Positions 1 to 15,626 of a stretch of DNA of 16,265 nt are shown here, in pieces; position 1 is the stretch's first letter, and the number at the start of each line of letters is the position of its first letter. Below the pieces are notes generated by a model that had not been told where the DNA came from, did no database searches, and was given only the letters and a program-made list of their open reading frames with translations. The translations under genes were made by a program, and so were the position numbers. Source of the stretch: a candidate division WOR-3 bacterium (GTDB lineage Bacteria > Hydrothermota > Tepidihabitantia > Tepidihabitantales > CAIPLT01); contig CBFGJZ010000007.1 in assembly GCA_965649215.1 (NCBI GenBank), forward strand, positions 1 through 16,265. The letters run 5' to 3'.

Positions 1-519
1 ATTCCATAAGAAATCATAATTGCGGTTAAGGTCAACGCCGTCGCCACTATCCCAAATGCCATTTTGGTTATTGTCTCGGCAATTTTTACGCCATAAAGTA
101 TCAATATTGGAACGGGTGATATAATGACCATCAGGATTGACCATTGGGACAACCCAAATTTCTGTATTATTAACCGCATTTGTTACTAATGAATCAGTAC
201 CATACTTAGTAACTAAATCCCACAGTATTGCCATGCATATCTCAACACCGATAATTTCACAGGCATGATGAACTCCATTATATAAAAGGCGCGGTTCATC
301 TTCTTGGAGTTGCGGATTATCTGATACTTTCATTGCCAGAATTGGTAAATTAAAACCTGTTGTATAACCAATCGTATGAAGTCGAGTAATGGTAGGATAA
401 TTAACGGCAATGTTTATCATTTCATCGACCATCTGGCCATAAGTTCGATATGCGGGGTCGACTGCTAAGAGTTGGGTTGTGCTTAAAATTATGATGCTTA
501 AAATTATTGGATATTTCAC
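1..519 (-). CDS. M14 zinc carboxypeptidase (carboxypeptidase T-like), secreted; only the 5' part is in the window
   Basis: Not in the ORF track; translated by hand. GTG at 519-517, with an in-frame TAA just upstream at 531-529. Translation: MKYPIILSIIILSTTQLLAVDPAYRTY...LAMKVSDNP...EPRLLYNGVHHACE...IWVVPMVNPDG...WRKNCRD...GDGVDLNRNYDFLWN. It has a signal peptide, HxxE Zn ligands and the NPDG, WRKN and GVDLNRN motifs of M14. Open to position 1. Confidence 0.93.
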   Translation of the reverse strand, partial: MKYPIILSIIILSTTQLLAVDPAYRTYGQMVDEMINIAVNYPTITRLHTIGYTTGFNLPILAMKVSDNPQLQEDEPRLLYNGVHHACEIIGVEICMAILWDLVTKYGTDSLVTNAVNNTEIWVVPMVNPDGHYITRSNIDTLWRKNCRDNNQNGIWDSGDGVDLNRNYDFLWN

Positions 520-540
520 TTTATTTTCTTAAAAAATTGA

Positions 541-3500
541 TTAATAAATTACCATTTTACGGCTCTGTTTTTTATTCTCTGTGATGAGAGTATAAAAATA
601 GATACCTTTAGGTACAGTTTGATTGCGAAAGTCAGTGCGATCCCAATTTATTATGTATTCACCAGCATTTTGATATTGATTAACAAGAGTTTTAATATGC
701 GTACCAACACTGTTATAGATTTTTAACTGGACATTTTGAGCAGTTGGTAAAGTGTATTTAATTTGAGTTAAATTGCTAAAAGGATTGGGTGCATTTTGAT
801 AAAGCTGAGATATTAATAAGGGTTGGGCAGTTGTTTCTAAAATCGCATTATAGATTAACATTGGAATTGAAAAGTATACAACCGCAGAATAGTTTGTTGC
901 ATTAATCTGTAAGATAAAATCTAAAATTGAGTCAGTCGGATTACTGACAACTTGAAAACGGAACGGATCGCTTAAATTATTTACAATTGCCGAAGGTGAA
1001 ATTGTGCCTAAATTAGTTATTGAATCAGTAATTATAACATTGCCGTCAAGGCTGCGAATAATTGCAGAAACATTAGAAGCACTAATATTACTGCGATTTT
1101 GGAGATACATTACAAAATCGACAATCTCATTTGGTTCAGGGATGCCATTATTATTACCATAAAGTGAATCATTGATAATGCCATTATTCAAAGTTATCCA
1201 TGGTGAATTTAAATTATTGGGTGATTGAGTGCTAAATCTGACTGCTCGGCCGTTGGTTAGAAAAGCGGATGTTGGATTATAGACATTGTTACGCATATAT
1301 TGAATACCAATTGTTTGCGGTTGATTTTCAATACCAACTGTAACTGACGACGGATTATTAAAGGTATGGTAAATAAATTCTATTATCCCATCACCGGTTG
1401 GGGTAGGGTAATAAATTGGATTATAAAGGATGGTTTGGAAAGTGAAGATATTAGTAGCTTGATTATACATCGGTACTTGATAAAACTCAACAATCCAACG
1501 ATAATTGGTAGCATCGTAATATTGATAAATATCGCCTGCTAAAGATGGGTCAAGATCACACCAAAGTGGTGCAATCATTGCGGCAGGGCCAGAAGTGTCA
1601 GGTATTGGCGTTGTGTTATTACCGAAACGATACGAAGTGCGACCCATCGCTAAAAATCCATTTGAACATACAGATATTGAATCATAATTTTGTCCATAGT
1701 ACTTGAAAGTAAATGGCAAGCGTAAAGTTGTCACGGCAGCATCTTGATTGGTAATTTCCAAAATTAAGCTACCTGGTCCACCGGGTCCAATTTCAAACCA
1801 GTTATAGGTAGGTGCTTGACCCGAAAGAGAGTCAGTATTATCATATGCCCAATAGCCATAGTTATCAGGACCGGTTGGGTCATTTGTAGAACCATTCTCG
1901 GAAACAATTATGAAATTAATCGTATCGCGATAGTAATAGGTACCACCATTACCGATTAAGAACATAGTTAAAGATATTGGATAGTTTTTTGGTAAGGTCG
2001 GGCTGGCAACTATGGCAAATGGGTCTTGGCTATTACTTGCTGATGCATTATGCAGAATATTGCCAAAACCAGCTTGGGAATCAGTGATCGAAATATAAGG
2101 TGATGTTGTTCTTAAAATGGCACTGACGCGATTGAGATTTTCACCAATATTTGTAATGTTAGTGGTTAATTTTATAGCTTCATTTTGTCCAATAGTTGAA
2201 TTGTTATTACCACCTGGAGGTGGGTCAATAACACTGACTGATGTTAAGTTGATTTTACCTGCATAGACTATAGTATTAATCTGTCTATCCCAAACGCGAG
2301 CTTGAGCATCTTGGATATGCAGTTGGAAAGTAATCTGTTCGTTGTTACGACAGTTAGAAGAGACCCAAAAACGATAAATTTGTTGGGAGATAACACTTTC
2401 CCCAACTGCAATCGTACCGTATTCACAAAGACTGTCTTGAATTGTAATATATGGATTATTGGTTCTTAAATAGGCCTGTACATTAGGAGCGTTGATATTA
2501 CCGTCGTTGCGTAAAATAACTGATAATTGAATTTGTTCGCCGGGATTTATTTTGCCATCATTATTTCCCAGTTGTTCTGTAAAATTATAAGAAACAATAT
2601 TTATATAGGGTTGATTAGCCGGTATAAAACGGATTGTATTTTCAAAAGGTATATAATTAGGGGCGGTCACCGTGATATCCATAATACCACTTGCTTGAGG
2701 TGTGAATGAAAGATTGATGAGACCTTGCATGTTAGTATAACCCCAAGTGTAAATTATGGTGTCCATACGCAGACATACTAATGCATTAGGAACCGCATTG
2801 TTGTTTTGATTGCGGACAGTAATTTGAAGACTACTTTGAGTCGAGGGAATAACGGAATCGTAAAGAACCAGCATGGGTTTGGGAGCATCGGTCCATAATT
2901 GTAAGGTTGGGTCGCCAAAAAGATTCCATTCACGGTAACGATCCGAAGAATATCCAGCCGGTTGTATAGAATCAAGAATGAATTTTGCTCTTTTAGCAGC
3001 ATCACCCATCGCATAAACTTTATCTTCAAATACGGAGCGGAAAAATCCAACCGAGACGGTACCGCGTTGCATTGCTAAACCAGAACCTGAACTAGTCATT
3101 GTAGAAGCAAAAAATCCAACTGAACCTTTCGGTGTTGTAACACTGCCTGCATTGATAAATCGGTCAGCGGCATAACCAGTGCTGGATAGGCTCATTGTGG
3201 CACAAGTGCCAGAGACTACGACAGGTAGTTTGTAGCCGTTATTACAATTATTGGGTTCAGTTGAAAAAGGTGTCCACCAGTTGGTTGTAGATTGACCACG
3301 AAATAAGACATAGGCTCGACCATCTGTAATGCCATTTACAATATCAGTACTGGAATGGCCACGATTTTTTGATAAAGAATCAACATAGACATAACCATTG
3401 CGTAACCATTGCGTAAATACATAACGAGCATTTTCCCAGTAATAAGTATCAGGATATTGTGTTGGCGGATAACCCGAATAGTCTTCTCGCACAATCGTCA

Positions 3501-3966
3501 TACCTTTACGAAACCATAATGTATCAGTAAGATAGGGATATCTTTCATAATTCAATGTTTTATTTACAATATTTCTTAGTTGATCAAGATTACTAGCTGG
3601 TAATCGACCAATACTGAGTTCAATTAAATAACTACCACCCATATCTGCAAAATAATCATCAGATGAACCTGAAGTAGCTAAAACACTGCCATGTCCTGCT
3701 AACAAAATATATTCAGGTCTTATTTGCCAGTTATTATAAGCATTTAAGATATAATTCTTAATTTGCGACGCAGAACTGCCAGTTACAGATAAAGGGACAA
3801 TCATTGTTTTAATACCTTTTTTGGTTTTCCAATCCGCAAATTGTTGTAGTTCGGAGACAAAATTATCAGGTGCGATGATGAGATATTTTGCACCATAGTA
3901 TGCAAATAGCGTATTGATAAGAATTATATTTATCAAGAGGATAAATAGAAAAGAACTCTTTTTCAT
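541..3966 (-). CDS. C25 (gingipain-like) family protein without prodomain; Ig-like repeats, nidogen-like domain, C-terminal T9SS/FlgD-Ig-type sorting domain
   Basis: Signal peptide followed directly by KYLIIAP..WKTKKG, YILLAG, IGRLP, LPVVVSGTC and WNLFGDP (C25 motifs). Three GNNxG..PxE Ig-like repeats, GPDNYGY/LPFTFKYYG domain, and a C-terminal PNPF..IYNSVG..GIYFY..KMVIY. SD AAGGAG upstream. Confidence 0.9.
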   Translation of the reverse strand: MKKSSFLFILLINIILINTLFAYYGAKYLIIAPDNFVSELQQFADWKTKKGIKTMIVPLSVTGSSASQIKNYILNAYNNWQIRPEYILLAGHGSVLATSGSSDDYFADMGGSYLIELSIGRLPASNLDQLRNIVNKTLNYERYPYLTDTLWFRKGMTIVREDYSGYPPTQYPDTYYWENARYVFTQWLRNGYVYVDSLSKNRGHSSTDIVNGITDGRAYVLFRGQSTTNWWTPFSTEPNNCNNGYKLPVVVSGTCATMSLSSTGYAADRFINAGSVTTPKGSVGFFASTMTSSGSGLAMQRGTVSVGFFRSVFEDKVYAMGDAAKRAKFILDSIQPAGYSSDRYREWNLFGDPTLQLWTDAPKPMLVLYDSVIPSTQSSLQITVRNQNNNAVPNALVCLRMDTIIYTWGYTNMQGLINLSFTPQASGIMDITVTAPNYIPFENTIRFIPANQPYINIVSYNFTEQLGNNDGKINPGEQIQLSVILRNDGNINAPNVQAYLRTNNPYITIQDSLCEYGTIAVGESVISQQIYRFWVSSNCRNNEQITFQLHIQDAQARVWDRQINTIVYAGKINLTSVSVIDPPPGGNNNSTIGQNEAIKLTTNITNIGENLNRVSAILRTTSPYISITDSQAGFGNILHNASASNSQDPFAIVASPTLPKNYPISLTMFLIGNGGTYYYRDTINFIIVSENGSTNDPTGPDNYGYWAYDNTDSLSGQAPTYNWFEIGPGGPGSLILEITNQDAAVTTLRLPFTFKYYGQNYDSISVCSNGFLAMGRTSYRFGNNTTPIPDTSGPAAMIAPLWCDLDPSLAGDIYQYYDATNYRWIVEFYQVPMYNQATNIFTFQTILYNPIYYPTPTGDGIIEFIYHTFNNPSSVTVGIENQPQTIGIQYMRNNVYNPTSAFLTNGRAVRFSTQSPNNLNSPWITLNNGIINDSLYGNNNGIPEPNEIVDFVMYLQNRSNISASNVSAIIRSLDGNVIITDSITNLGTISPSAIVNNLSDPFRFQVVSNPTDSILDFILQINATNYSAVVYFSIPMLIYNAILETTAQPLLISQLYQNAPNPFSNLTQIKYTLPTAQNVQLKIYNSVGTHIKTLVNQYQNAGEYIINWDRTDFRNQTVPKGIYFYTLITENKKQSRKMVIY

Positions 3967-3984
3967 TTTTATTGTTGCTCCTTC

Positions 3985-5313
3985 TTATTTTTGATAAATG
4001 ATACGTTTCATATAGTATTTATCTTTGACTTTAATTATTGCTAAATAGATTCCTGAGGCAACTTGTTTATTATAAGTATCAGTTCCGTTCCACGCCAAAA
4101 TATTATTTTGATAGTCTAATGTCTTAATATGTTTTCCCGAAATATCAAAGATTTGAACCGATTGATTTGGGTTAGCTTGATTGAGGATAAAGTTTATTTG
4201 AGTGCGAAACGGATTAGGTTTCACAATAATTTCATTAGAGATATTTTGAGACATTAGAAAATTTTGTTCTTGAATGCCAACATTGGCAATATACCAATTT
4301 GCTCCACCATTATGCGTGTATAAAACAAAACCGTTTCCAGCAATTAAACCGTGCAGAGTGTCGGCAAAATCTACATCAAATAATGTAGTATCAACATTAC
4401 TTTGTTGGATAACCCAAGTATTACCTCCATTCGAAGTATGAAGGATAGTGCCATTTCGACCAACTGCCCAGCCATGCGTAGAACCGACAAATTTTAATGC
4501 CCGTAGGTAGTGTGCTTGATAAGGAATCGGGACATTTTGCCAACTCAGACCACCATCATTGGTTTTCATAATAACCGCTTGATTATTACGGTCATTACCA
4601 CCAACTACCCAACCATGTAGTGAATCAATAAATTTGATATCAAAAAAGTCGTATATCGTATCTCTTTTGAGAAGTTGCCAAGTATTGGGATTTCCACCAC
4701 CATCAATAGTACGAGCAATATAGCCCTGTCCTTTAACATATACGGTTTCACCAGCAACAGGGTCATATTCAGGATAACGGCCAGCACAAAACCATCCGCG
4801 ATTTTCATCAATGAAATGAATTCCGTAAATATCACAAGAATCAGCTGAAAATGGTGGGTTGGGTAAGAAAACTCCTTCCCAAGTTGAAAAACTAAAAGTA
4901 GTCTCGCTACCGGCAATAGTCTTGGCAACGATGGCTTCACCACATGCAGCCCAACCCACGGTATCATTTATGAAAAATACTCGCGCTGCCCATTTGGATA
5001 ATCCCATTGCTTGACGATACCAATTTTGGCCCCCATTTGGCGAGTAGAAGATAAATCCTTCATTACCACCAATCCAACACTTTTGACTATTAAGGGCAAA
5101 AATATCAAAATAATAGCGTTGTGAAGTAAAACTTTGATTCTGCCAACTTAAACCACAATTGGGAGTGTGTTTTACTAAACCGGTATCATTGGCAACAATC
5201 CAACCTAAAGTTGTGTTAGGTGCTAAAGCAGTACCACGCCAATTAACTGCAATTACTTGAGGTATTATTACTAACCCAGATAGGGCGATTATAAATAATA
5301 TTTTTTTATACAT
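3985..5313 (-). CDS. YCF48/BNR (Asp-box-like) beta-propeller protein with C-terminal T9SS/FlgD-type domain
   Basis: Signal peptide; about 7 repeats of GW(A/V)xG...(H/K)TxxGGxxW (HTPNCGLSW, YSPNGGQNW, KTNDGGLSW, HTSNGGNTW, YTHNGGANW); C-terminal PNPF..IFDISG..WNGTD..VASGIY. SD GGAG upstream. Confidence 0.88.
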   Translation of the reverse strand: MYKKILFIIALSGLVIIPQVIAVNWRGTALAPNTTLGWIVANDTGLVKHTPNCGLSWQNQSFTSQRYYFDIFALNSQKCWIGGNEGFIFYSPNGGQNWYRQAMGLSKWAARVFFINDTVGWAACGEAIVAKTIAGSETTFSFSTWEGVFLPNPPFSADSCDIYGIHFIDENRGWFCAGRYPEYDPVAGETVYVKGQGYIARTIDGGGNPNTWQLLKRDTIYDFFDIKFIDSLHGWVVGGNDRNNQAVIMKTNDGGLSWQNVPIPYQAHYLRALKFVGSTHGWAVGRNGTILHTSNGGNTWVIQQSNVDTTLFDVDFADTLHGLIAGNGFVLYTHNGGANWYIANVGIQEQNFLMSQNISNEIIVKPNPFRTQINFILNQANPNQSVQIFDISGKHIKTLDYQNNILAWNGTDTYNKQVASGIYLAIIKVKDKYYMKRIIYQK

Positions 5314-5328
5314 ATCTATTACTCCATT

Positions 5329-8300
5329 TTAATTCAAAATCATTTTTATTTTCTGATTAACTTTATTATCATTGTTTTTAATTGATAGTATGGCAAAATA
5401 GATACCAGCAGGTATTTTTTGGTTCTGCCATTTAAGTTGATATTGGCCAGCAGAATGATATTTATTGTCTATCAAATTTAACTTTATTTTGCCAGTTATA
5501 TCATATACTTTTAGACTTACCATACCATCATGAGATAATGAATAATAAAAATTAGTATAAGATTTTATCGGATTAGGAAAGATTGAGAAGAACTTGGGAT
5601 TATTAATAACATAATGATTGAGTTCTTTTATTGCAGTAAAGGTATCGGGTGGATTGGTTGTGAATTTTATTGCTCTACCGGGTTCAATAATTGCAGCAGC
5701 AGAGGGGTAGTGATTTGCAAAAGTGTATTCAATACCGTCTAAAAGATTTGGGCTTTCAATGCCAACTGTGGCATAATTGTGACAATCCACTGACGCAGAA
5801 TCGTCATTAAACACAGTATGATATTGAAAGATAATCGGACCGTCACCGGTTCGAGTTGGATAATAAGTCGGATTTAAGAGAAGTACTTGAAAAGTTTGTT
5901 GTTCAGCAGGATAGGGATTTCGAAAGCCATGCATATGATGAATTCGGGACCATTGGATAATAAAACGATGATTAGCAGCATCATAATGATAATAAATCCC
6001 TGATGAAGAGAGTGTCTCGGGATGGAAATAATCCCAAAATGGAGCAATTAATGCGGGCGGACCCATGGGAGAAGGAATTGACCAATTATACATATCAATA
6101 ATCCAAGTAGAATCCATTGCCATATAGCCATTCGAAGCAATAGAAATCCGATTATAGTTATTGCCATAATATTTAAAAGTGAAAGGTAAATTTATAACGC
6201 GAATTGAATTATTGGGCATTGAGAGTCGTGTTCCACTCCCGCCGTAGTTTGGATCGATCTCAATCCAATTATAAGTAGGACATTCAGCATATGCAAGATC
6301 CATATTATCATATGCCCAATAACCATATTGATCAGGACCTAATGGAGCAGTAAAATTGATATTGCCAATTGTGATTGGAAATTCAACGATTCTTTCATAA
6401 CTTGAATTTCGTAAAACTAATTGTAGATATATTTTACGACCAATTGCTAATGATGATGCAGCATGGATTGTAAAGTAATCAGATGAATTTTGAATAGAAT
6501 CACCGACATTAATTGTACCATAGTAACCAATTGAATCTAACACTTGTATTGCATAAGGATTAGCACTCCGTAAAATTGCGGAAACATTAGAAATATTTTC
6601 CAGACCGCGATTATAAACTTTAACAATCAGATTAGCAGTTTCATTGGGTTCTAAAATATTATTATTACCATCGACAACAGAATGACTTTTATACGATAAT
6701 TCAGCACTGCGAACTATGCCGTTAAAACCTGCCTGCCAACTATTAGATGTGCTAGTAATGGCAATTTGAAAGTTAATACGATGGTTATTCGTACAATTGG
6801 TGGCAACAATAAATTGGAATGGTCCATTTATACTGATTTGATTAGGTGCAATATCACCAAATGACTTAGTCGAATCTAATATTGTTATATAATTGTCTGA
6901 ACTGCGAAGGGTAGCAAAAGTATTATATGCAGTTTGAGTAGTACCATAGTTTTTTAGTGAGATCATTATATTATTTGTTTGGCCAGCAATGATACTACCA
7001 CTATGGTTATAATAACCAACATATAAGGCACTTGGAATTATTTGGACATTACCTCGATGGGGTAAGAAATTGTGTTTGGTTACAGTGACAAATAGAGTAT
7101 CTTGAGTTTGAGTTAGAAAATTAAACAAAGCCAAACCACTTTCATTAGTATAACTTATCTGTTTAACTTCATTGTTTTTGAAGATTGAAACTAATGCGTT
7201 GGCAACAGGCTGATTATTGCTATTTTGTACGGATATGGTTAATTGAGAACTACCAATTGGTAGTTGATTAGGATAATTTACCACAAATTGTTTTGGGGTT
7301 GTACCATACCACATTTCTAATGATGGGTCCCCTAAAATATTATAAGTGCAAACATGAGTTGTTAAAGCAAGAGTGTCTGATGCCATTGGAAAATTGTTGA
7401 GCATTTCAATTTTGCCACGGAATAAAGCAGGACCAAGATTAGTGATGCCTTCTTCAAAAATGCCAAAATAAACTCCATAATCATGGCAATTATTAAAGCG
7501 TGTTGAAGTTGTCGCATAAATTGGTCCATAAAATGCAACACCCCCGCGGGGTTGAGTGGGACTGCCAGCAATAAGCCAGGTTGTGCCAAAATTTGTTGTG
7601 GCCGTAAAATTACCTGTGGCGCAATAAAAGCTTGTTACAATTGGTAATTTCCAGCCATTGTTAAGATTAGCAACATCTTGGAATTTAAAATAGGGATAAC
7701 TCCATCCTTCTCGATTGCCCCAACCCCGACCATTGACAAAAGTAACTCCACGATTGATGATTGTATCGATAACGCCAACACCATTTGATATTGGCGGATG
7801 AAAAACTGTATCGACTTGATAGTAATTATGATTAATAAGAAGATTACGTACCCATCTTTTAGTAACAAGGGCAGTCCAAACTGGTACACCGGATGATTGA
7901 TAGGTGGTAGCAACCATTAAAGCTCGTTTATACCACAAAGTGTCCGCAAGATGAGGTGATTGTTCATAACCGATAGATTTAGCAACCATTACTGATAATT
8001 CTGAAGTACTACTAGTGGGAAAACGACCTACAAACAAATCAGGATATAAATCATCACCGTCAACGCAGGCGTATAAATGATCACCAACAGTCTGGCTACT
8101 TGAGATTGGAGGAATATCCGTGGCATTGCCGACTAATAAGACATATTCAATTTTTGGGGTCCAAGTTGCATAAGCTTGAGCAATGTAGTTTTTGATAGCA
8201 GCAGAAGTCGTTCCAATTTCTGATTTGCGTTTCACCGTTACTGTCCAACCTTTTTGATTTTTCCATTGAGCAAATGGTAAAATTGTATTATAAAGTGCAT

Positions 8301-8955
8301 CAGTTACGATTATAAGGTAGCCTTTGGGTAGACCAGAAGAAAAAGTCATCGTTTCATCAGCTTGATAATTTAAAATCGTATTTTGGAAAAATTGCGACCA
8401 ACTTGGTGAAATGAAAAGGTGATCGCGATACGCATCGAAATTATTGTTAGATTTAAGTTCAATTTCAATATTTTTATAACTAACAAGAGAATGACTGTTT
8501 TTGTCATATCGATATTGACGCACAATCAACGGCATAACTTTTAGACCATGCATTATCCCACTTTTGCCGAAATATGCAAAGGGAAGATGTTGAGATTCAT
8601 CAGCGTTATTTATCTCTGGATATTTTGAGATGGGTATAGTTACGGAGTCAATGGCAACTATTTTTAATTCAATGTCCTCAGAAGATGTAGTAATTAATTT
8701 TGATTGATAGATGAGGTAATTATCGGAATTAACAAACTCGTCAACTATTAAATCGGTTATCTCATCTTGTAATAAAATGTCATCTGCAATTTTGGTTTCT
8801 ATTTTTAGATAATTCGGTGCTTGATATTGACAGGTAAAATCAGTTAAGGTACTTAAAGGAATCGGTGATTTTATATTTGTTACTGCCCAGCCGATAGTAG
8901 TAAAAATACTTATAACAATAAAAAAGATGATATTTTTCATGTTATTATTCAACAT
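5329..8955 (-). CDS. C25 (gingipain-like) family protein with N-terminal propeptide-like region, Ig-like repeats, nidogen-like domain and C-terminal sorting domain
   Basis: About 190-aa N-terminal pro-region, then GYLIIV..WKNQKG, YVLLVG, DGDDLYPDLFVGRFP, LPIVTSFYC, YNILGDP; GPDQYGYWAY/LPFTFKYYG; C-terminal FPNP..VYDITG..AGIYF. The true start may be the ATG at 8940 (MKNIIFF...) rather than 8955. Confidence 0.9.
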   Translation of the reverse strand: MLNNNMKNIIFFIVISIFTTIGWAVTNIKSPIPLSTLTDFTCQYQAPNYLKIETKIADDILLQDEITDLIVDEFVNSDNYLIYQSKLITTSSEDIELKIVAIDSVTIPISKYPEINNADESQHLPFAYFGKSGIMHGLKVMPLIVRQYRYDKNSHSLVSYKNIEIELKSNNNFDAYRDHLFISPSWSQFFQNTILNYQADETMTFSSGLPKGYLIIVTDALYNTILPFAQWKNQKGWTVTVKRKSEIGTTSAAIKNYIAQAYATWTPKIEYVLLVGNATDIPPISSSQTVGDHLYACVDGDDLYPDLFVGRFPTSSTSELSVMVAKSIGYEQSPHLADTLWYKRALMVATTYQSSGVPVWTALVTKRWVRNLLINHNYYQVDTVFHPPISNGVGVIDTIINRGVTFVNGRGWGNREGWSYPYFKFQDVANLNNGWKLPIVTSFYCATGNFTATTNFGTTWLIAGSPTQPRGGVAFYGPIYATTSTRFNNCHDYGVYFGIFEEGITNLGPALFRGKIEMLNNFPMASDTLALTTHVCTYNILGDPSLEMWYGTTPKQFVVNYPNQLPIGSSQLTISVQNSNNQPVANALVSIFKNNEVKQISYTNESGLALFNFLTQTQDTLFVTVTKHNFLPHRGNVQIIPSALYVGYYNHSGSIIAGQTNNIMISLKNYGTTQTAYNTFATLRSSDNYITILDSTKSFGDIAPNQISINGPFQFIVATNCTNNHRINFQIAITSTSNSWQAGFNGIVRSAELSYKSHSVVDGNNNILEPNETANLIVKVYNRGLENISNVSAILRSANPYAIQVLDSIGYYGTINVGDSIQNSSDYFTIHAASSLAIGRKIYLQLVLRNSSYERIVEFPITIGNINFTAPLGPDQYGYWAYDNMDLAYAECPTYNWIEIDPNYGGSGTRLSMPNNSIRVINLPFTFKYYGNNYNRISIASNGYMAMDSTWIIDMYNWSIPSPMGPPALIAPFWDYFHPETLSSSGIYYHYDAANHRFIIQWSRIHHMHGFRNPYPAEQQTFQVLLLNPTYYPTRTGDGPIIFQYHTVFNDDSASVDCHNYATVGIESPNLLDGIEYTFANHYPSAAAIIEPGRAIKFTTNPPDTFTAIKELNHYVINNPKFFSIFPNPIKSYTNFYYSLSHDGMVSLKVYDITGKIKLNLIDNKYHSAGQYQLKWQNQKIPAGIYFAILSIKNNDNKVNQKIKMILN

Positions 8956-9946
8956 ATTTTACAATTAGTAAGCCCCGGTCACGGTCTGCAACATAGATTA
9001 AATTGTCTATAGTTACATATACACCTTTGGCATAATTGGTTTTTACGGTTTCAATTAATAAAGGTTGGGTAGGGTTTTTGATATTGACAATTTTCAAACC
9101 ACCATCGCCACAGGCAAGATAAGCAAGAGTGTCTTTGACATAAACATTCTGAGCATAACCATCTACTTTAAGATTACCAACTTGAAATGGCGATTGGGGA
9201 TTACGGATATTTAAGACCACCAAACCATTGCGTCCATCAGCGACATAACAAAGGGTATCACGAATAAAAAGATGACGAGCATTACTGGGCGTATCGCAAC
9301 TACCAAGGATTTCAGCAGATACTTGTGGAGTTGATTTTATTTTTATCGTATAAACACCTAGTTGCTCACAAGCTAAATAGGCAATAGAATCGACAACAAA
9401 AAGACTGCGAGCATTGTTAGGGAAATTAAGATATGCATAAGTGGGCCAGTTTGGATCAGTGATATTAAGGATAAAGAAGCGTTCTCGGCCAGCAATACAA
9501 ATAAGATTTGTATCAATAACTGCGTTTTGATAAGCATAACCAATTAGAATTATACCTGATAAGATTTCATAATTAGTAATTATACTATCGGTTCTGACTA
9601 TTTCAAGCCTTACTAAAAGTTTACGACCGCATGATAGATAAGCATAATTTTCAAAAAGCGTTACTGACCAACAGGAATTTAAAGTATCCATCCATTGTCC
9701 AACTATAGTCGGTTGTTCAGGATTATCAACATTATAAATAACTAATCCCGCTTGACCTGAAGCAACAAATGCTAATCTTTGGTTGTGTAATTCTTTTATG
9801 ACAAGCGATTGCGGATAACCAGGATTAGAAGTTTCTGAAATGATTGTAAATTTAGATTCAATAATTTGAGGTTCGCCACAATGAAGTAATAGTGATAATA
9901 AGACAAAAGAAAGTATTTTAATAAAATATTTATCTTTTATAAACAT
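8945..9946 (-). CDS. LVIVD-repeat beta-propeller protein, probable lipoprotein
   Basis: Repeats of (A/C)Y(L/V)AxGxxGLx(I/V)xN(I/V)xNPxxP (AFVASGQAGLVIYNVDNPEQP, CYVADGRNGLVVLNIRNPQSP, AYLACGDGGLKIVNIKNPTQP). The hydrophobic N-terminus ends in LLLHC (atypical lipobox). Start moved from TTG 9970 to ATG 9946, which has SD AAGGA and lies 4 nt after the upstream stop. Confidence 0.85.
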   Translation of the reverse strand: MFIKDKYFIKILSFVLLSLLLHCGEPQIIESKFTIISETSNPGYPQSLVIKELHNQRLAFVASGQAGLVIYNVDNPEQPTIVGQWMDTLNSCWSVTLFENYAYLSCGRKLLVRLEIVRTDSIITNYEILSGIILIGYAYQNAVIDTNLICIAGRERFFILNITDPNWPTYAYLNFPNNARSLFVVDSIAYLACEQLGVYTIKIKSTPQVSAEILGSCDTPSNARHLFIRDTLCYVADGRNGLVVLNIRNPQSPFQVGNLKVDGYAQNVYVKDTLAYLACGDGGLKIVNIKNPTQPLLIETVKTNYAKGVYVTIDNLIYVADRDRGLLIVKYVE

Positions 9947-9950
9947 TTTT

Positions 9951-11048
9951 TTATTCCTTTTCAATTTCAATGTTACTTGTTTGTGTCATCTCAAAAATAT
10001 TTCGGGGATTGAATTTAATTCCCAAAATGTATTTATTGTTATTATAGTCTTTGATTTCTTCAATGTCAACTTGATAGGGGGTATTGACTTTGCGCTGTTC
10101 GTTTTCATAACCAATAAATAATTGGAAATTTTTTGAAATATTATATGTAAAACGGAAGTTTAAATTATATTTATGGTCGCTTCGGCCAGCATGAAATGGA
10201 TCAATAGCAAATGGATTTTCAGTTGTAAAGTATCTTTTACTATATTCAAATCCAAGATTAATATTAAAGAGAGAAGTTAGGAAATTAGGGATTAGATTGA
10301 TTGAATATTTGTTTTCATTATACGAAATATCAGGGATTGGACCTTGTGCTGATAACTGTTTTCGCATTAATTTTAAGCTAATATCAACAAAATTTAAATA
10401 TCGTAAAGTTGTATTTATACCATATCTAAGAGCAGAACCATCATAATAATTAAAATTTTTAATATAATCATTGATTTCGTATTGGAAAAATGGCGAAACT
10501 GTTATTTTAGATAGCCGATAACGAAGATTAAAAGAAAAAAGATGTTCATTAAAAATACAACCGATATAATCAGTACTCGTTCCCAGGGGATTACGATAGT
10601 AACGAATTAAGTAATTAGGCAAGAATAAATAACCAATTTGAAAACTAATTGGTTTAGAGATTTGATATGAGTTACTTAGCGATATTAATTGATAAGATTT
10701 CTGAGTATTCATTAAATAAAGATATTGTCGATAATTGATTGATAGATTGTTACGTTTTTTATTGATTTGGTAAGGAAGTTGGAGATTCAAATTTAAGCGA
10801 GTAATTAGATCATCATATGTGCGAAAGGGGAATCGATAGGCACGATTTTGACTTATAAAATCATTAAGATAGGATTGAGAATAAAGAAAAATATTGTCAT
10901 CATACTCAACATGCATATCCCAATTTATGCGCGGAGATTGTTTAAATGATATAATATTAGCAGACCAAATGATTGTCGGAATGTTTACGAATGCGACAAT
11001 AAATAATAACACTCTGATCATGTGTAAATGGTAGAATTTTCTATTCAT
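9951..11048 (-). CDS. Predicted outer-membrane beta-barrel protein
   Basis: Signal peptide; early YDDNIF motif; many alternating amphipathic Tyr/Phe-rich strands (RLNLNLQL, SFNLRYRL, NINLGFEY, NLNFRFTY, YILGIKF). Alternative start ATG at 11021 (MIRVLL). Confidence 0.75.
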   Translation of the reverse strand: MNRKFYHLHMIRVLLFIVAFVNIPTIIWSANIISFKQSPRINWDMHVEYDDNIFLYSQSYLNDFISQNRAYRFPFRTYDDLITRLNLNLQLPYQINKKRNNLSINYRQYLYLMNTQKSYQLISLSNSYQISKPISFQIGYLFLPNYLIRYYRNPLGTSTDYIGCIFNEHLFSFNLRYRLSKITVSPFFQYEINDYIKNFNYYDGSALRYGINTTLRYLNFVDISLKLMRKQLSAQGPIPDISYNENKYSINLIPNFLTSLFNINLGFEYSKRYFTTENPFAIDPFHAGRSDHKYNLNFRFTYNISKNFQLFIGYENEQRKVNTPYQVDIEEIKDYNNNKYILGIKFNPRNIFEMTQTSNIEIEKE

Positions 11049-11928
11049 ATTGTGCTTTTGGTTTTACAGCAAAATGTAATGACGCGGATTTTCCTAAGCC
11101 ACCTTTGAGTTTGAATTCTATAAGATAGATGCCAGGTGGTATATCTAGATACATATTATGCGGGATGGACGGAATTAAATCAGATGCATTTTTGTAAAGG
11201 CCAGTTTGTGATTTTGAAGTGCGAAATGTTTTGGCTTGCCATTCTTTTCCACTCACTGTCGCAGAAATAGTATAGTTTTGTTTGCCTTCTAGAGTATAGT
11301 CATAATTAAGACGGCAAGTTACTCGTAATGTTGCGGGTCCTTCAATTTTTACCTTAACCGGAGTTTTATCAGTTACTTCATAATAATTAGTAATACGTTC
11401 TTTATCAACAAATTGTAATTCTCGAAACTTAACATCTGGTATAATTTTGTGATAATCAACGGGTTTTTCAAAGCTAACTCGGATTGCGACAGTTTCAGAT
11501 TTTGCTTCTACAAGACTTATTTTATAGTTATTTTTTCCTTGTGGTACTTCAATATAGAAAGAACGCCACTTGCTGTAGCGCTGTTTTTGCGCACCCAGCG
11601 CCGTGTTTGATAGTTCGGAGATAAAAGTTAATAATTTGTCTTGTTCATTTTCACTCACTACTAACTTATAAGTTTGTGTCTTTGCCATATCCTGGTGCCA
11701 AAGTAGTCGAGTGTAAATTCTAAGCCATGCTGGTCCATTAACACTCATTTCGAAAGGTTGGTTTTTAGTTACATAATAATATTCTTGTTCAACTCTTTTA
11801 ATAACACTAATTACAGTTCGTGATGAAACTTTTTTGATTTCAATTGGTTGATTTTGAGCAGATATATACTTAGGTATCAACAATAAGCTTATCATTAAAG
11901 ATAAGAATAAATATTTATTGTTCATCAT
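11041..11928 (-). CDS. Exported hypothetical protein with two internally duplicated beta-rich domains
   Basis: Signal peptide (..ISA/Q); internal repeat YYxVTxxxP..GPAxLRxxxRL..QxY..TF..S.T..Y(I/L)(E/D)(V/I)PxG. SD GGAG spacing favours the second ATG (11925). Confidence 0.8.
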   Translation of the reverse strand: MMNNKYLFLSLMISLLLIPKYISAQNQPIEIKKVSSRTVISVIKRVEQEYYYVTKNQPFEMSVNGPAWLRIYTRLLWHQDMAKTQTYKLVVSENEQDKLLTFISELSNTALGAQKQRYSKWRSFYIEVPQGKNNYKISLVEAKSETVAIRVSFEKPVDYHKIIPDVKFRELQFVDKERITNYYEVTDKTPVKVKIEGPATLRVTCRLNYDYTLEGKQNYTISATVSGKEWQAKTFRTSKSQTGLYKNASDLIPSIPHNMYLDIPPGIYLIEFKLKGGLGKSASLHFAVKPKAQYE

Positions 11929-11942
11929 CTCTCCAATCTTTA

Positions 11943-13034
11943 TTAATTGTTATTATTAGTTTTCTTAGTTAAATAATATTCTAAATCATAACGGATGACA
12001 AAATATAGAATAATAATAAGTAGAATTGCAAATATAGCTGCGATGGTTTGAGAATATTTAGTTTCCACAAACATACTACCTTTACCAACAGGAGGTAAAG
12101 GAATTGGAGCAATTGGCAAATGATATTTCGATGCTAACCGATTAGCATCAGTAATATTTATGACAGGTACTTTATTCTCAAGCATGGTCAGTATCACAAA
12201 ATCACCACTGAGATTCTTTGGCTTATTTCTTATTAGGCCTGTTGGTAGATGTAAACGATGTTCACCAAGATTGGCGATAGAACGACCAATATTAATAAAT
12301 GCTTTTATTTTATGAGTAGTGTGGTAAATTGAAAGTCTTTCTTTTATATTAGAAGACAAATCATCGGTATGAATGAGTTTAATATTGTACTTATTAATTG
12401 TCTTAATCAACGCATCTCGGGCTTCAGGACTAAAACCGCGACCATTATCATCTTCGCCACCGAGTGTAGCAGCAATCGATTGATAGGTAAAAATTCCCTG
12501 CCCTCGACATATTTGTTCCATATCTAACCATGTTAGATTAATATGATTTGCGCCCCACATGGCGGAACTTAAAGTCGAGATAATAATTGGTTTTATATTC
12601 ATAACTCGCAGAGCCGAAAATAATGCTAAATTTAAAGCTGGATAAGAGCCATCAATACCTACTGCGATGGTGTCGCCATCCTTTATTTTTAAATTTGATA
12701 ATAATTCTATCATAACCGCAGCAAAATTAGGATTGGTTGAAGTTAACACAGACGACAGATCGGTTCGATCAATGGTAATTGGAGTGTATTGTTCACCTAT
12801 GATACCAGTTTCGTTAGGATCATTAATAATGTCAATTGGAATATTCAGTCGAAGCCGTTCTTGTTTAATTTTCTGCATTGCTTCGTAACATATTTGACTT
12901 GCTTTTAATCTTAGCTCATAATTCCTAGGACGCACATTGTGTTTACTAGCGAAAGTTAAGATTAAAAAGACGAGCGAAATGATTGCAAAGATAATTAAAA
13001 CAATTCGACCTACTTTCCCTTCACGTTTTTTCAT
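11943..13034 (-). CDS. pgsW: Poly-gamma-glutamate system protein (TIGR04332-type)
   Basis: Follows pgsBC; N- and C-terminal TM helices; DPNETGIIG..TPIT, TNPNFAA, GSYPALN, SSAMWGAN, AATLGG.DD.G and FINIG motifs recognised from this family. Start corrected to ATG 13034: SD AGGAG overlaps the pgsC stop, whereas the track's 13076 start lies inside pgsC. Confidence 0.85.
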   Translation of the reverse strand: MKKREGKVGRIVLIIFAIISLVFLILTFASKHNVRPRNYELRLKASQICYEAMQKIKQERLRLNIPIDIINDPNETGIIGEQYTPITIDRTDLSSVLTSTNPNFAAVMIELLSNLKIKDGDTIAVGIDGSYPALNLALFSALRVMNIKPIIISTLSSAMWGANHINLTWLDMEQICRGQGIFTYQSIAATLGGEDDNGRGFSPEARDALIKTINKYNIKLIHTDDLSSNIKERLSIYHTTHKIKAFINIGRSIANLGEHRLHLPTGLIRNKPKNLSGDFVILTMLENKVPVINITDANRLASKYHLPIAPIPLPPVGKGSMFVETKYSQTIAAIFAILLIIILYFVIRYDLEYYLTKKTNNNN

Positions 13035-13041
13035 AACGCTC

Positions 13042-13494
13042 CTACATAATTGAGATACTACCATTTGAAATAACAATTATTATCAAACGAGTAAGGACTG
13101 CTGCTATGGTCATAGTCGTGATGGTTTCAATTATACCTTGTCGATGCATCCAATAAGCAATTAAACCTGGGATAACATATCCAATGGTTGTGATGTCAAG
13201 TTTTAAATCACTGAAATAAATCGGTGGAAAGAGACGTACTGCATACCCAATCAGATAACCTAAAAGAATTGTAATTACCAATAAGCGTCTTCCAAATAAT
13301 AACATAATTTTACCTAAGAGTTTCGTTAATATAAATGTGATGATTGCGATAAGTACAGTAGCAATAATTCGAAAAGGTTCGGTAAAATATAAAGCAATAT
13401 ATCCCGGTACAACAATACCACCAGCTGCTAAACCAATGGTTTCAGTTAAAAAAAGACTAGCTAACATTCCCAAACCAATAGTTTCTATGATCAT
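13042..13494 (-). CDS. pgsC: Poly-gamma-glutamate biosynthesis membrane protein PgsC/CapC
   Basis: 150-aa hydrophobic protein with GLAAGGIVVPGYIAL, LFGRR and IGYVIPGLIA..QG signatures; directly after pgsB; SD AAGGA. Confidence 0.96.
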   Translation of the reverse strand: MIIETIGLGMLASLFLTETIGLAAGGIVVPGYIALYFTEPFRIIATVLIAIITFILTKLLGKIMLLFGRRLLVITILLGYLIGYAVRLFPPIYFSDLKLDITTIGYVIPGLIAYWMHRQGIIETITTMTIAAVLTRLIIIVISNGSISIM

Positions 13495-13509
13495 ATCTTC
13501 AATCCTTTA

Positions 13510-14676
13510 CTAATATTCAATTTCGCCGCCTTTTGAGGCAAAATATTGTATTATTGTTTCGCCAAAACCAACTGTATTACCGGTCGCAAATACTAAGGCA
13601 TCATTTTTTACTAATTCAAGAACTTTATTGTAAATTTGAGCAGGGGTTTTTTCACCTAAATCTACAATTTTTCCTTTGGGCATTCCTAAGCTTGTTGCTT
13701 TTCGAATGTATGCAGAAGTTAGAAAACCTGTTGCAACAAACCAATCGGCCTGAAATTTTGATGCGGTCAGTTCTCCTAACTGAATTGAGCGATCCGCACG
13801 GTCATCACGACAATTTACTAAGACAATCTTTTCTGGTGCTAAATGATTTACTTTTTGCCATAAGAGGTATATTGAATCAGGATCATTTGCAGCTAAAGTA
13901 TTAATTAATCGCATCTGTTTATTGTTCTCACGAATTGTGTAAATTCTCATAACACCAGGGTCAGGATTAGCGCGATACATACCCAAAAGAGCCGTTTTAC
14001 GGTCAATACCTAAATTTTCACAAACCAAAAGAGCTAAAGCAACATTCTCTTTATGTTCAATATAATTAAAACCTTTCATTTCGTCGTCACTAATGGTTTG
14101 GGCATCAGCAACAAAAACCTGTGAATTTGCTTTCAATGCGTTCTTTTTGAAAATGTCAAGATGGATATTTTCCGCAGTAAAGAATTTTGCATTTTTTGAA
14201 ATTGTATTAGATAATGATTTAGCGACATCACGAACAGTTGGTCCCATAACATCAAGATGATCAGCGCGAGCATTGGTAATTACACTATGCGTAGATTTTA
14301 TCAATCGATGGGTATGAATCCATTGATAATGAGGAACTAAAGCCATACATTCAATAACTATAACTTCAGGATTATATTTGACTGCTTGACGAAATATTTT
14401 TAATTCTTCGCCAATATTAGGTTTGCCTAATCGTTTAATAGGTATTTCTTCTTTATCAGAAATTATAAATCTTGGTTTTGTACCTGTTGTTTTGGCAATA
14501 ACTTTGCGACCACTCGCTCGAATTCCACCTGCGATTAATCGAGTAACTGATGATTTACCACGAGTACCATTTACTTCAATACGAATAGGTATCTTTCTGA
14601 CATTTTTTAAATGCCAGCGATACTCAATTACCCCATACCCAATAAAGATTATGGTAATGATTAATAAAAAAAACAT
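13510..14676 (-). CDS. pgsB: Poly-gamma-glutamate synthase PgsB/CapB (Mur-ligase-like ATP-dependent amide ligase)
   Basis: N-terminal TM helix; VNGTRGKSSVTRLI P-loop, AKTTGT, ECMAL, ITNARADHLDVMGPT, ENVALAL, PDPG, AANDPDS, NCRDDRADRS. Confidence 0.97.
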   Translation of the reverse strand: MFFLLIITIIFIGYGVIEYRWHLKNVRKIPIRIEVNGTRGKSSVTRLIAGGIRASGRKVIAKTTGTKPRFIISDKEEIPIKRLGKPNIGEELKIFRQAVKYNPEVIVIECMALVPHYQWIHTHRLIKSTHSVITNARADHLDVMGPTVRDVAKSLSNTISKNAKFFTAENIHLDIFKKNALKANSQVFVADAQTISDDEMKGFNYIEHKENVALALLVCENLGIDRKTALLGMYRANPDPGVMRIYTIRENNKQMRLINTLAANDPDSIYLLWQKVNHLAPEKIVLVNCRDDRADRSIQLGELTASKFQADWFVATGFLTSAYIRKATSLGMPKGKIVDLGEKTPAQIYNKVLELVKNDALVFATGNTVGFGETIIQYFASKGGEIEY

Positions 14677-14685
14677 TTGTGTTTA

Positions 14686-14714
14686 ATTATAAATTATTAC
14701 TATCATTATGTCAA
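14686..14714 (-). promoter_or_regulatory. Sigma70-type promoter of the pgs operon
   Basis: Minus strand reads TTGACA(14714-14709) TAATGATAGTAATAATT (17 nt) TATAAT(14691-14686) TAAACACAA ATG, a perfect consensus with ideal spacing. Confidence 0.8.
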
Positions 14715-14808: not shown

Positions 14809-14838
14809 TGCAAAAAATTGCACTGAAGTGCAAATTTT
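14809..14838. promoter_or_regulatory. Inverted repeat with phased TGCA motifs: candidate enhancer-binding-protein site or intrinsic terminator
   Basis: TGCA at 14809, 14819 and 14829 (10-bp period); perfect inverted repeat TTGCACT-GA-AGTGCAA (14818-14833). On the minus strand it is followed by TTTTTT. Confidence 0.55.
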
Positions 14839-15055: not shown

Positions 15056-15592
15056 TTAAAGCAATAAGAGTTTTTTAACTTGGCAATGATCGGGCGTCTG
15101 TAATTTATAAAAATAAATACCGCTTGCTATTTTCTGTCCCCGATCGTCTGTGCCATTCCAATTAATCGTATAAATACCGGCTGGGATTTCCTGATTTATA
15201 AGCTTTCTAATAATCCGACCTGATGCATCGTAGATTACGAGAGAGAGTTTACTAGAATTTGATAAGGAGTAACGAATAGTAGTTTGTGATTTAAATGGAT
15301 TGGGAAATGCATTATAAAGTTTTGTTATTAGTGAATTAGTATTGAAAATTTCATCGTCTTTTTGTTCAGTGATGCCGGTTAAAGGTAAAGGATACCAAAA
15401 CCCAATTTTCGCTAAAATATTTGATGAAGAAAGATTTCCGATTGCAGTTTGACCAATCGTTGCTTGACCTTGAAAATCAGTTGAAGTTAAGGTACCTCCT
15501 CCATTACTAAAAGTATTCCACGGACATGAATATTGGCTATAAGAGATAGCAAACATCCCTACTAAAAATAGGACAAGATATCTATATATCAT
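15056..15592 (-). CDS. Small secreted protein: ~50-aa GGG..IGQ..GFW domain plus T9SS/FlgD-Ig-type C-terminal domain
   Basis: SD AAGGAG precedes ATG 15592; the track's GTG 15607 start would put the SD inside the ORF. Signal peptide; WNTFSNGGG..ATIGQ..IGFW; FPNPF..IYDASG..WNGTDDRG..ASGIYFYKL..KKLLLL. Confidence 0.85.
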   Translation of the reverse strand: MIYRYLVLFLVGMFAISYSQYSCPWNTFSNGGGTLTSTDFQGQATIGQTAIGNLSSSNILAKIGFWYPLPLTGITEQKDDEIFNTNSLITKLYNAFPNPFKSQTTIRYSLSNSSKLSLVIYDASGRIIRKLINQEIPAGIYTINWNGTDDRGQKIASGIYFYKLQTPDHCQVKKLLLL

Positions 15593-15626
15593 TTTTACTC
15601 CTTTCACTAAACTATAACATTTTTAT

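Follow-up and report, generated by a model that had tools for sequence, protein, structure and literature searches.

The cluster and its poly-gamma-glutamate genes

The stretch of DNA analysed here (the window) comprises 16,265 nucleotides from a hot-spring bacterium of candidate division WOR-3, the first 16,265 bases of a contig of 63,694 bases, and all of its long open reading frames (ORFs) lie on the minus strand. They form a run of ten tightly packed genes, in the order pgsB, pgsC, pgsW, rep2, barrel, LVIVD, C25a, BNR, C25b and M14, in which genes of the poly-gamma-glutamate families are followed by genes for a predicted periplasmic protein (rep2), a predicted outer-membrane beta-barrel and several predicted surface proteins. 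Poly-gamma-glutamate is a capsule, biofilm and industrial polymer, whose synthesis is, to our knowledge, understood only in single-membrane Bacillus-type cells; Fusobacterium nucleatum is said to be the first Gram-negative producer, from a 2009 report by Candela. The original prediction for this DNA had described a ten-gene run with gaps of at most about 21 nucleotides or overlaps, and all ten genes were recovered where it had placed them. From 5' to 3', the junctions are gaps of 15, 7 and 14 nucleotides, an 8-nucleotide overlap, a 4-nucleotide gap, an 11-nucleotide overlap, and gaps of 15, 18 and 21 nucleotides. The 7- and 4-nucleotide values rest on ATG starts at 13034 (pgsW) and 9946 (LVIVD), and the TTG starts at 13076 and 9970, respectively, would turn those two gaps into overlaps of 35 and 20 nucleotides. 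The first five genes are the following:

13510..14676, minus strand: pgsB, poly-gamma-glutamate synthase (Mur-ligase-type amide ligase), 388 residues; TIGR04012 equivalog, 437.3 bits (cut-off 222.7), with a Mur_ligase_M match
13042..13494, minus strand: pgsC, membrane subunit, 150 residues; TIGR04011, 121.6 bits (cut-off 96.45); PF14102, 118 bits
11943..13034, minus strand: pgsW, 'poly-gamma-glutamate system protein', 363 residues from the ATG at 13034, with the ORF open from the TTG at 13076; TIGR04332, 298.4 bits (cut-off 100)
11041..11928, minus strand: rep2, secreted, basic (net charge +13) protein of 295 residues with two domains of carbohydrate-binding module (CBM)-like beta-sandwich fold in the AlphaFold2 (AF2) model; candidate periplasmic guide for the polymer
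9951..11048, minus strand: predicted 14-strand outer-membrane beta-barrel, 365 residues, net charge +8; AF2 predicted local distance difference test (pLDDT) 88.5; candidate outer-membrane exit for the polymer

The first three proteins are clear members of their families. PgsB shows a GTRGKSS P-loop in its translation, PgsC scores above its cut-off and is encoded 15 nucleotides after pgsB, and PgsW is encoded by a single copy in the genome, beside pgsB and pgsC. The start of pgsW is most likely the ATG at 13034, since the homologues align from residue 15, and the protein is predicted to have a hydrophobic segment at each end and a large domain between them. All three models of the pgsB–pgsC–pgsW cassette (TIGR04012/TIGR04011/TIGR04332) are matched here in the same adjacent order; the curated families stop at PgsW, whereas the cluster continues with genes that the sources name 'hypothetical protein'.

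It is conceivable that the product of the PgsB- and PgsC-like enzymes is some other amide-linked polymer, or that these enzymes modify a different molecule of the envelope, free poly-gamma-glutamate not being made. The replacement of PgsA/CapA by PgsW would suit such a product. Against this, PgsB (437 versus 222.7 bits) and PgsC (121.6 versus 96.45 bits) lie well above the equivalog cut-offs of their families, and we consider a different polymer exceedingly unlikely.

The absence of capA and capD from the window, already noted in the original prediction, was confirmed for both, no gene of the CapA family (PF09587, PGA_cap) being found there. Elsewhere in the genome there are two clear CapA-family genes (C32:635-1777 and C5:11690-14638). 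PF09587 also matches in 7 of 14 control genomes, so that the family is not diagnostic of polyglutamate synthesis. For GGT/CapD (PF01019) there was no match in the genome, which is 95.1% complete, and this incompleteness leaves the absence unproven. The possibility that capA and capD elsewhere in the genome explain the pathway therefore holds in part only: CapA-family genes are indeed present, but no GGT/CapD was found, and CapA genes cannot explain the passage across the outer membrane.

The two CapA-family genes differ in their surroundings and in the proteins they encode. The first (G000:C32:635-1777, minus strand) encodes a protein of 380 residues with an N-terminal hydrophobic anchor, and adjoins a response regulator and a sensor kinase of 1326 residues. 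The second (G000:C5:11690-14638, plus strand), unlinked to the pgs genes, encodes 982 residues with a CapA-type PGA_cap domain and a C-terminal type IX secretion system (T9SS) sorting domain, and would be a secreted CapA-like protein.

Conservation of the cluster within and beyond the phylum

In order to follow the cluster, we surveyed the phylum of the window (named WOR-3 in the records) in 272 species genomes, and found pgsW in 130, rep2 in 118 and the barrel in 115 of them. Positive and negative families coincide for the three genes, whose coordinates are almost always adjacent and in that order. The remaining genes were compared in 20 loci (designated L with a number), hand-picked for spread over 12 families and for contig size, and thus not a random sample. 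The barrel is present in all 20, and rep2 in 19 as a separate gene and in one as a fusion. The LVIVD gene lies directly 3' of the barrel in 18 of the 20, being missing in L051 and L055. Among the 16 loci with the LVIVD gene and room for a further gene, 15 have C25a, and 14 of these 15 also have BNR; a further C25 gene was found in all 13 loci with room for it, and M14 in six of the 20 (L037-L040, L049 and L052). On these comparisons, the gene order of the window is a feature of the phylum, across families.

Four genomes of families f24 and f25 (G041, G044, G047 and G048) differ: their rep2 matches are weak and partial (E 1e-4 to 1e-7), the window query finds no barrel, and the best LVIVD match is some 10 kb distant or lies on a separate contig. 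The locus seems to have a divergent form in these genomes.

A 12-row PgsW alignment retrieved 265 relatives in species-representative genomes, and the best 80 of the 265 were examined, a few of which are also in the phylum set. As these are the relatives closest to the query, the sample has no bearing on distant PgsW carriers. The record titles comprise Stahlbacteria, Hydrothermia, TA06, Ignavibacteriaceae, Melioribacter, Bacteroidales, Lentimicrobiaceae and Flavobacteriales, further Neomarinimicrobiota, Fibrobacteraceae, Cloacimonadota, Eisenbacteria and Auribacterota, and also records labelled Nitrospirota, Chlamydiae and Deltaproteobacteria. Profiles of rep2, the barrel and PgsW served as queries for the loci, along with the remaining window proteins, and counts were taken only among loci with room for the gene concerned. 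Counted in this way, 72 of 75 wider loci carry rep2 and 63 of 68 carry the barrel; for an LVIVD-type gene the figure is 49 of 60. Of the 37 loci long enough on either side, 31 have a large C25-fold gene, which is upstream of pgsB in 17 loci (Ignavibacteria- and Bacteroidales-type) and downstream of it in the other 14. The strongest reason to count the C25-fold protein as part of the system is that this linkage survives rearrangement. The expectation that the downstream genes would be conserved beside pgsBCW was thus borne out: the rep2–barrel pair comes after pgsW all through the phylum and in many further lineages of the Fibrobacteres–Chlorobi–Bacteroidetes (FCB) group, and the lipoprotein and the C25-fold gene travel along even where the order differs.

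The first five genes are further tied together by fusions that join PgsW to rep2 and rep2 to the barrel. In L134, PgsW (residues 25-377) and rep2 (residues 434-667) share one stop-free reading frame of 690 codons, with a second hydrophobic segment between them that would return rep2 to the periplasm. In L055 (4207-6045, plus strand), rep2 (residues 37-238) and the barrel (residues 315-606) form a single protein of 612 residues, and further long forms were retrieved in the rep2 family search (P0213 and P0256).

The linker of the L055 fusion has about 20 residues and is extremely basic, rich in Arg, His and Lys. In L103, L122, L127, L132 and L134 some barrel ORFs reach 528-608 residues and LVIVD-type ORFs 818-942 residues, with extra domains; these sizes are those of stop-to-stop frames, which may be overlong in GC-rich DNA.

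The predicted periplasmic protein rep2 and outer-membrane barrel

For rep2 and the barrel, 20-row orthologue alignments were built and both proteins were folded. No Pfam or NCBIfam family was found for rep2, and a Pfam search at E up to 5 gives only a sub-threshold match to TssR_C (15 bits). The AF2 model (pLDDT 90.8) consists of two beta-sandwich domains, each of which aligns to CBM-type jelly rolls with VIA-align Z values of 8-9.6, near the background range, and to BcsB with a Z value of 7.8. The whole model gives jelly-roll matches in Foldseek at low template modelling (TM) score only. The rep2 profile retrieves 767 cluster representatives among 1.84 billion proteins, and the ESM Atlas returns only unnamed clusters, in which the commonest taxon is Fidelibacterota (a lead only).

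The barrel model is closed and the protein has a signal peptide, as in outer-membrane porins, and Foldseek relates it with a probability of 1.00 to OmpG, CymA and 16-strand porins. The top matches are porins, the 14-strand OmpG and CymA fitting best (TM by target 0.63-0.67), and AlgE and PgaA are not among the matches listed. At the sequence level there is only a weak match to EpsL (TIGR03014, 21.6 bits for a cut-off of 275) and a sub-threshold match to BBP2_2 (15 bits), and the sources annotate the relatives of the barrel, which come mostly from 'candidate division WOR-3' records, as 'hypothetical protein'. The invariant residues in the 20-row alignment include K117, R149, R272, H286, R289, R319 and K333. 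A net charge of +3 or more is found in 14 of the 20 barrel orthologues, and of +8 or more in 16 of the 20 rep2 orthologues, and these positive charges fit a polyanion as cargo.

The likeness of the barrel is to porins in general and not to any one known polymer exporter, BcsC being found only at Foldseek ranks 41 and 49 (TM 0.37-0.38), which speaks against a dedicated exit. It may thus be asked whether rep2 and the barrel rather hold the polymer at the cell, as an anchor, or import glutamate or polymer fragments. The likeness to general diffusion porins (OmpG, CymA) would agree with this, as would the rep2 folds, which are those of binding modules and indicate binding, not transport. However, the fusions join rep2 to PgsW as well as to the barrel, and the rep2–barrel pair is found essentially only beside pgsW, which fits a step in the synthesis pathway. 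Moreover, the outer membrane has to be crossed at some point by any polymer produced at the inner one, and the cluster encodes no other candidate for this passage. In our view, an anchor or import function is improbable, and we prefer to regard rep2 and the barrel as a putative guide and exit pore.

The lipoprotein and the predicted surface proteins

The second half of the cluster encodes a probable lipoprotein and four further proteins:

8945..9946, minus strand: LVIVD-repeat beta-propeller, probable lipoprotein, 333 residues from the ATG at 9946, with the ORF open from the TTG at 9970; PF08309, 74.2 bits (cut-off 20.2)
5329..8955, minus strand: C25a, 1208 residues; PF01364, 206.4 bits (cut-off 23)
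3985..5313, minus strand: BNR / YCF48-like beta-propeller of 442 residues that carries a T9SS type A sorting domain; PF14870, 85.8 bits; TIGR04183, 34.9 bits (cut-off 23)
541..3966, minus strand: C25b, 1141 residues, with a T9SS type A sorting domain; PF01364, 155.2 bits (cut-off 23); TIGR04183, 34.8 bits (cut-off 23)
1..519, minus strand: M14 zinc carboxypeptidase, first 173 residues only, the gene being cut by the contig end; PF00246, 118 bits

In the LVIVD protein, the hydrophobic N-terminus leads directly into a Cys, in the window copy and in 18 of 18 orthologues. From this we infer that the protein is lipidated, with residues preceding the Cys that are not a classical lipobox. The strongest LVIVD matches in the phylum (E 8e-34 or better) mostly adjoin the barrel gene, and are apart from the pgs genes in families f24 and f25. 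The LVIVD repeat family as such cannot be considered specific to pgs-carrying genomes, as 231 of the 272 phylum genomes have a match, and only the strongest, near full-length ones are syntenic.

C25a comprises a signal peptide, an N-terminal domain, the C25 (gingipain) fold, Ig/CARDB-like domains, a NIDO-like domain and a T9SS-type C-terminal tail, the latter scoring 25.9 bits on Por_Secre_tail (PF18962), a borderline value just below the cut-off of 27. Near their C-terminus the C25-fold proteins have a strongly conserved domain in common, with the motifs GPDxxGY and LPFxFxxYG. A Pfam search at E up to 5 found nothing for this domain of C25a, and for residues 865-1110 the ESM Atlas points to NIDO (0.92, 43% of cluster members), which is to be taken as a lead only. 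Neither C25a nor C25b could be assigned as the T9SS sortase PorU (NF033707), since their matches cover only parts of the model.

The two proteins had originally been described as secreted peptidase-fold proteins. The C25 fold stands (206 and 155 bits), but the catalytic His is missing in both. As in gingipains and PorU, Ig-like domains and a C-terminal T9SS sorting domain come after the C25 fold; unlike in these proteins, the position of the catalytic His (His211 of gingipain R) is occupied by Trp412 in C25a and by Gln225 in C25b, whereas the catalytic Cys (Cys244) is kept, as Cys445 and Cys255, respectively. The comparison was extended to an alignment of 53 large C25 proteins, in which the two window proteins were joined by 51 from the 80 wider loci; three outliers were dropped and 50 pgs-linked proteins counted. 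In these, the His position is W, E, G or Q in 50 of 50 and never H, the catalytic Cys is kept in 50 of 50, as is an Arg two residues before the His position, and no His conserved in at least 90% of the proteins was found within the catalytic domain. As a control, the same kind of profile alignment was applied to the 16 C25-domain ORFs of the window's own genome. The canonical His was found in 10 of them, including the PorU-like gene on contig C12, so the missing His is real and not an alignment artefact; the six ORFs without it are the two of the window and four C25b-like paralogues elsewhere. As the His is missing in both C25-fold proteins of the window, peptidase activity of the usual kind is unlikely for them. 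Judging from the alignment, the cluster defines a large subfamily of gingipain-fold proteins that have the Cys and never the His.

The BNR protein was considered as a true Ycf48 and this was rejected, since NF010237 gives 95.7 bits for a cut-off of 326 and only the propeller fold family PF14870 is matched. The M14 fragment shows the HxxE, WRKN and NRN motifs. Its full-length orthologue in L037 (1471-2997, 508 residues) gives 128 bits to carboxypeptidase T and keeps HxxE, NRN and the catalytic Glu; the third Zn ligand is not cleanly aligned to carboxypeptidase T, and a CarboxypepD_reg (regulatory-like) domain is present. The carboxypeptidase is apparently active.

Promoter-like and terminator-like sites

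Three sites bear on how the cluster may be transcribed:

14686..14714, minus strand: sigma-70-type promoter-like site (TTGACA, 17 nucleotides, TATAAT), a 12/12 consensus match, and a consensus match only, ending 9 nucleotides before the pgsB ATG
14818..14833, minus strand: terminator-like hairpin and T run, 3' of the upstream gene, marking the upstream border of the cluster
10041..10069, minus strand: second perfect promoter-like site, within the 3' end of the barrel gene, about 70-95 nucleotides ahead of the LVIVD start

No terminator-like site was found in any of the junctions, in agreement with the original prediction of a run without evident terminator: all five cluster-internal matches on the minus strand fall in coding sequence. 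Both strands of the 1.64-Mb genome together contain only 65 perfect promoter-like matches. When six related loci were compared, the internal site was found to be perfect at the same place in L036 and L037, and to match at 10/12 positions in L038. It overlaps the conserved coding stretch VDIEEIKDYN, so coding constraint may be the cause of its conservation. The presence of this second site inside the barrel gene means that a single ten-gene transcript cannot be taken as established. No RNA sequencing runs containing the window sequence were found; the best DNA match, with a 0.31 share of words, is to hot-spring metagenome runs.

A possible pathway for synthesis, export and surface handling

The gene content suggests the following pathway. 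PgsB and PgsC, with PgsW replacing PgsA/CapA, would make poly-gamma-glutamate at the inner membrane, an activity that we take from the family membership shown above. The polymer would then be passed to rep2, as a basic periplasmic protein with two CBM-like domains, and would leave through the 14-strand outer-membrane barrel as a dedicated exit, in a synthase-dependent route like that of alginate or cellulose. More tentatively, the LVIVD lipoprotein and the T9SS cargo (the two C25-fold proteins, BNR and M14) could hold, size or trim the polymer, surface proteins taking the roles of PgdS and CapD known beside the Bacillus operons, by analogy also with PghP.

Taken as a whole, synthesis, export and surface handling of poly-gamma-glutamate by a conserved envelope cluster of two-membrane FCB-group bacteria is the explanation that we favour, with a confidence somewhat above even. 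Its five-gene core (pgsB, pgsC, pgsW, rep2 and barrel) is well-supported, and the part concerning the surface proteins is less certain. The order of events proposed originally, from synthesis through periplasmic guidance and outer-membrane transit to processing or attachment at the surface, finds partial support, in the gene linkage and in the membership of PgsBCW, but probably has to do without the usual C25 peptidase activity; the rest we infer.

Several observations weigh against this explanation. A recognisable barrel was not found in five of the wider loci with room for it (L101, L118, L129, L135 and L137). Of the 20 hand-picked loci, three deviate: L051, without anything recognisable in the 5 kb downstream of the barrel, L055, with the fused rep2–barrel alone, and L044, in which no C25 gene comes after the LVIVD gene. 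M14 is the least constant member, found at the cluster position mainly in the window's own family and in fewer lineages than the other downstream genes. The C25 proteins and, like them, the M14 fragment are acidic (net charge -9 to -11), and thus unsuited to direct electrostatic binding of a polyanion, and the His-less C25 catalytic domains count in the same direction. LVIVD-repeat proteins occur in the 231 phylum genomes mentioned above regardless of pgs genes, and His-less, Cys-keeping C25b-like paralogues are encoded away from the pgs cluster, at C16:12618-14933, C35:6804-9605, C38:5-3565 and C38:3582-5192. Finally, a perfect promoter-like site before the LVIVD gene leaves room for two transcription units in the cluster.

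The main rival builds on this last point, and considers that two units with separate promoters are merely side by side: pgsBCW-rep2-barrel would make and export the polymer, and the genes from LVIVD to M14, with their own promoter, would encode unrelated T9SS surface proteins for adhesion or feeding. This would account for the recurrence of the promoter-like site in L036 and L037, for C25-fold proteins that are His-less and acidic, for the C25b-like paralogues and LVIVD proteins found elsewhere, and for L044, L051 and L055, which keep the first unit without C25 genes. However, 18 of 20 and 49 of 60 loci have the LVIVD gene after the barrel, and in 31 of 37 cases a large C25-fold gene is retained in the locus, across phyla and despite its move between downstream and upstream positions, which a chance adjacency would not survive. 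In addition, the promoter-like site lies in a conserved coding motif that may explain its conservation. We thus consider two unrelated units unlikely, though deserving of attention, and retain a single system that includes the surface proteins as the favoured explanation.

Comparison with known systems

In Bacillus, a gene for a polymer-processing enzyme (PgdS or CapD) is in or beside the pgs/cap operon (PMC4497714). The cluster resembles the Bacillus PgsBCA(E)/CapBCADE systems in its PgsB and PgsC, which match at the equivalog level, and in that its M14 and C25-fold genes hold the position of the processing enzyme. It differs in having no PgsA/CapA, with PgsW in its place, and in a genome in which no GGT/CapD was found. 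The host also differs in having an outer membrane, and the periplasmic protein, barrel, lipoprotein and T9SS cargo have no counterpart in Bacillus. Judged by its genes, the cluster is a diderm variant of the polyglutamate system.

The phage poly-gamma-glutamate hydrolase PghP is described, in the same source, as a Zn peptidase related to carboxypeptidase A (PMC4497714), and the M14 protein of the cluster is a zinc carboxypeptidase of the A/T type, the type to which PghP is related. In contrast with PghP, PgdS and CapD, it has no sequence membership in the PghP, NlpC/P60 or GGT families, and an activity on gamma-glutamate is putative.

Exopolymer porins of the AlgE/BcsC/PgaA type have 16-18 strands. 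In outline, the cluster is similar to the systems for alginate (AlgK/AlgE), cellulose (BcsB/BcsC) and poly-N-acetylglucosamine (PgaA), in which an inner-membrane synthase, a periplasmic binder and a dedicated barrel are encoded in one operon, and the rep2 domains are jelly rolls of the BcsB kind (Z 7.8). In contrast to these systems, the barrel has 14 strands, no tetratricopeptide repeat scaffold was seen in the cluster, and the cargo would be a polyamide and not a polysaccharide. Since the Z values of rep2 are within the background range, the likeness to synthase-dependent systems is an analogy, not a membership.

A literature search for pgsW, TIGR04332 or 'poly-gamma-glutamate system protein' found no relevant paper, and our literature searches yielded no description of the module and no paper on a route for poly-gamma-glutamate across an outer membrane. 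CapBC and unnamed transport proteins are mentioned for Cloacimonadota in one paper (PMC8542988). The cluster supplies conserved candidates for each step, namely a binder in the periplasm, a pore of 14 strands, a lipoprotein and proteins of the surface. Hundreds of genomes carry these candidates, among them records titled Melioribacter roseus, and the question of export is thus directly testable.

Host envelope and secretion

The 1.64-Mb genome encodes BamA (474 bits), which indicates that the host has an outer membrane, and the SprA translocon (427 bits summed). A full-length PorU-like sortase is present at C12:12207-15431, with 409 bits to NF033707 (cut-off 420) over model positions 6-1094, and the sorting-domain part of the PorU model is matched 31 more times. 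LpxC was not found in the genome, at its 95.1% completeness, nor in six of nine family relatives. In the phylum, LpxC is present in 231 of 272 genomes, also in most of the pgs-carrying ones, and two families without it (0/14 and 0/5) are also without pgsW. A simple link between loss of lipopolysaccharide (LPS) and gain of the pgs genes was rejected on these grounds.

The combination of no LpxC with BamA, SprA, a PorU-like sortase and the 31 sorting-domain matches led us to consider, by analogy with the role of anionic LPS in Porphyromonas, whether poly-gamma-glutamate could be an anionic surface polymer to which T9SS cargo is fixed, with the Cys-only C25 proteins as adaptors or atypical transamidases. 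As a general rule this is opposed by the presence of LpxC in most pgs-carrying genomes of the phylum and by the two LpxC-less families without pgsW, and we think it very unlikely.

Just upstream of the cluster, the window also encodes a small protein of 183 residues (15056-15607, minus strand) that is mostly a T9SS sorting domain and whose gene has its own terminator-like hairpin. A relative of this protein is found at the corresponding place in L037.

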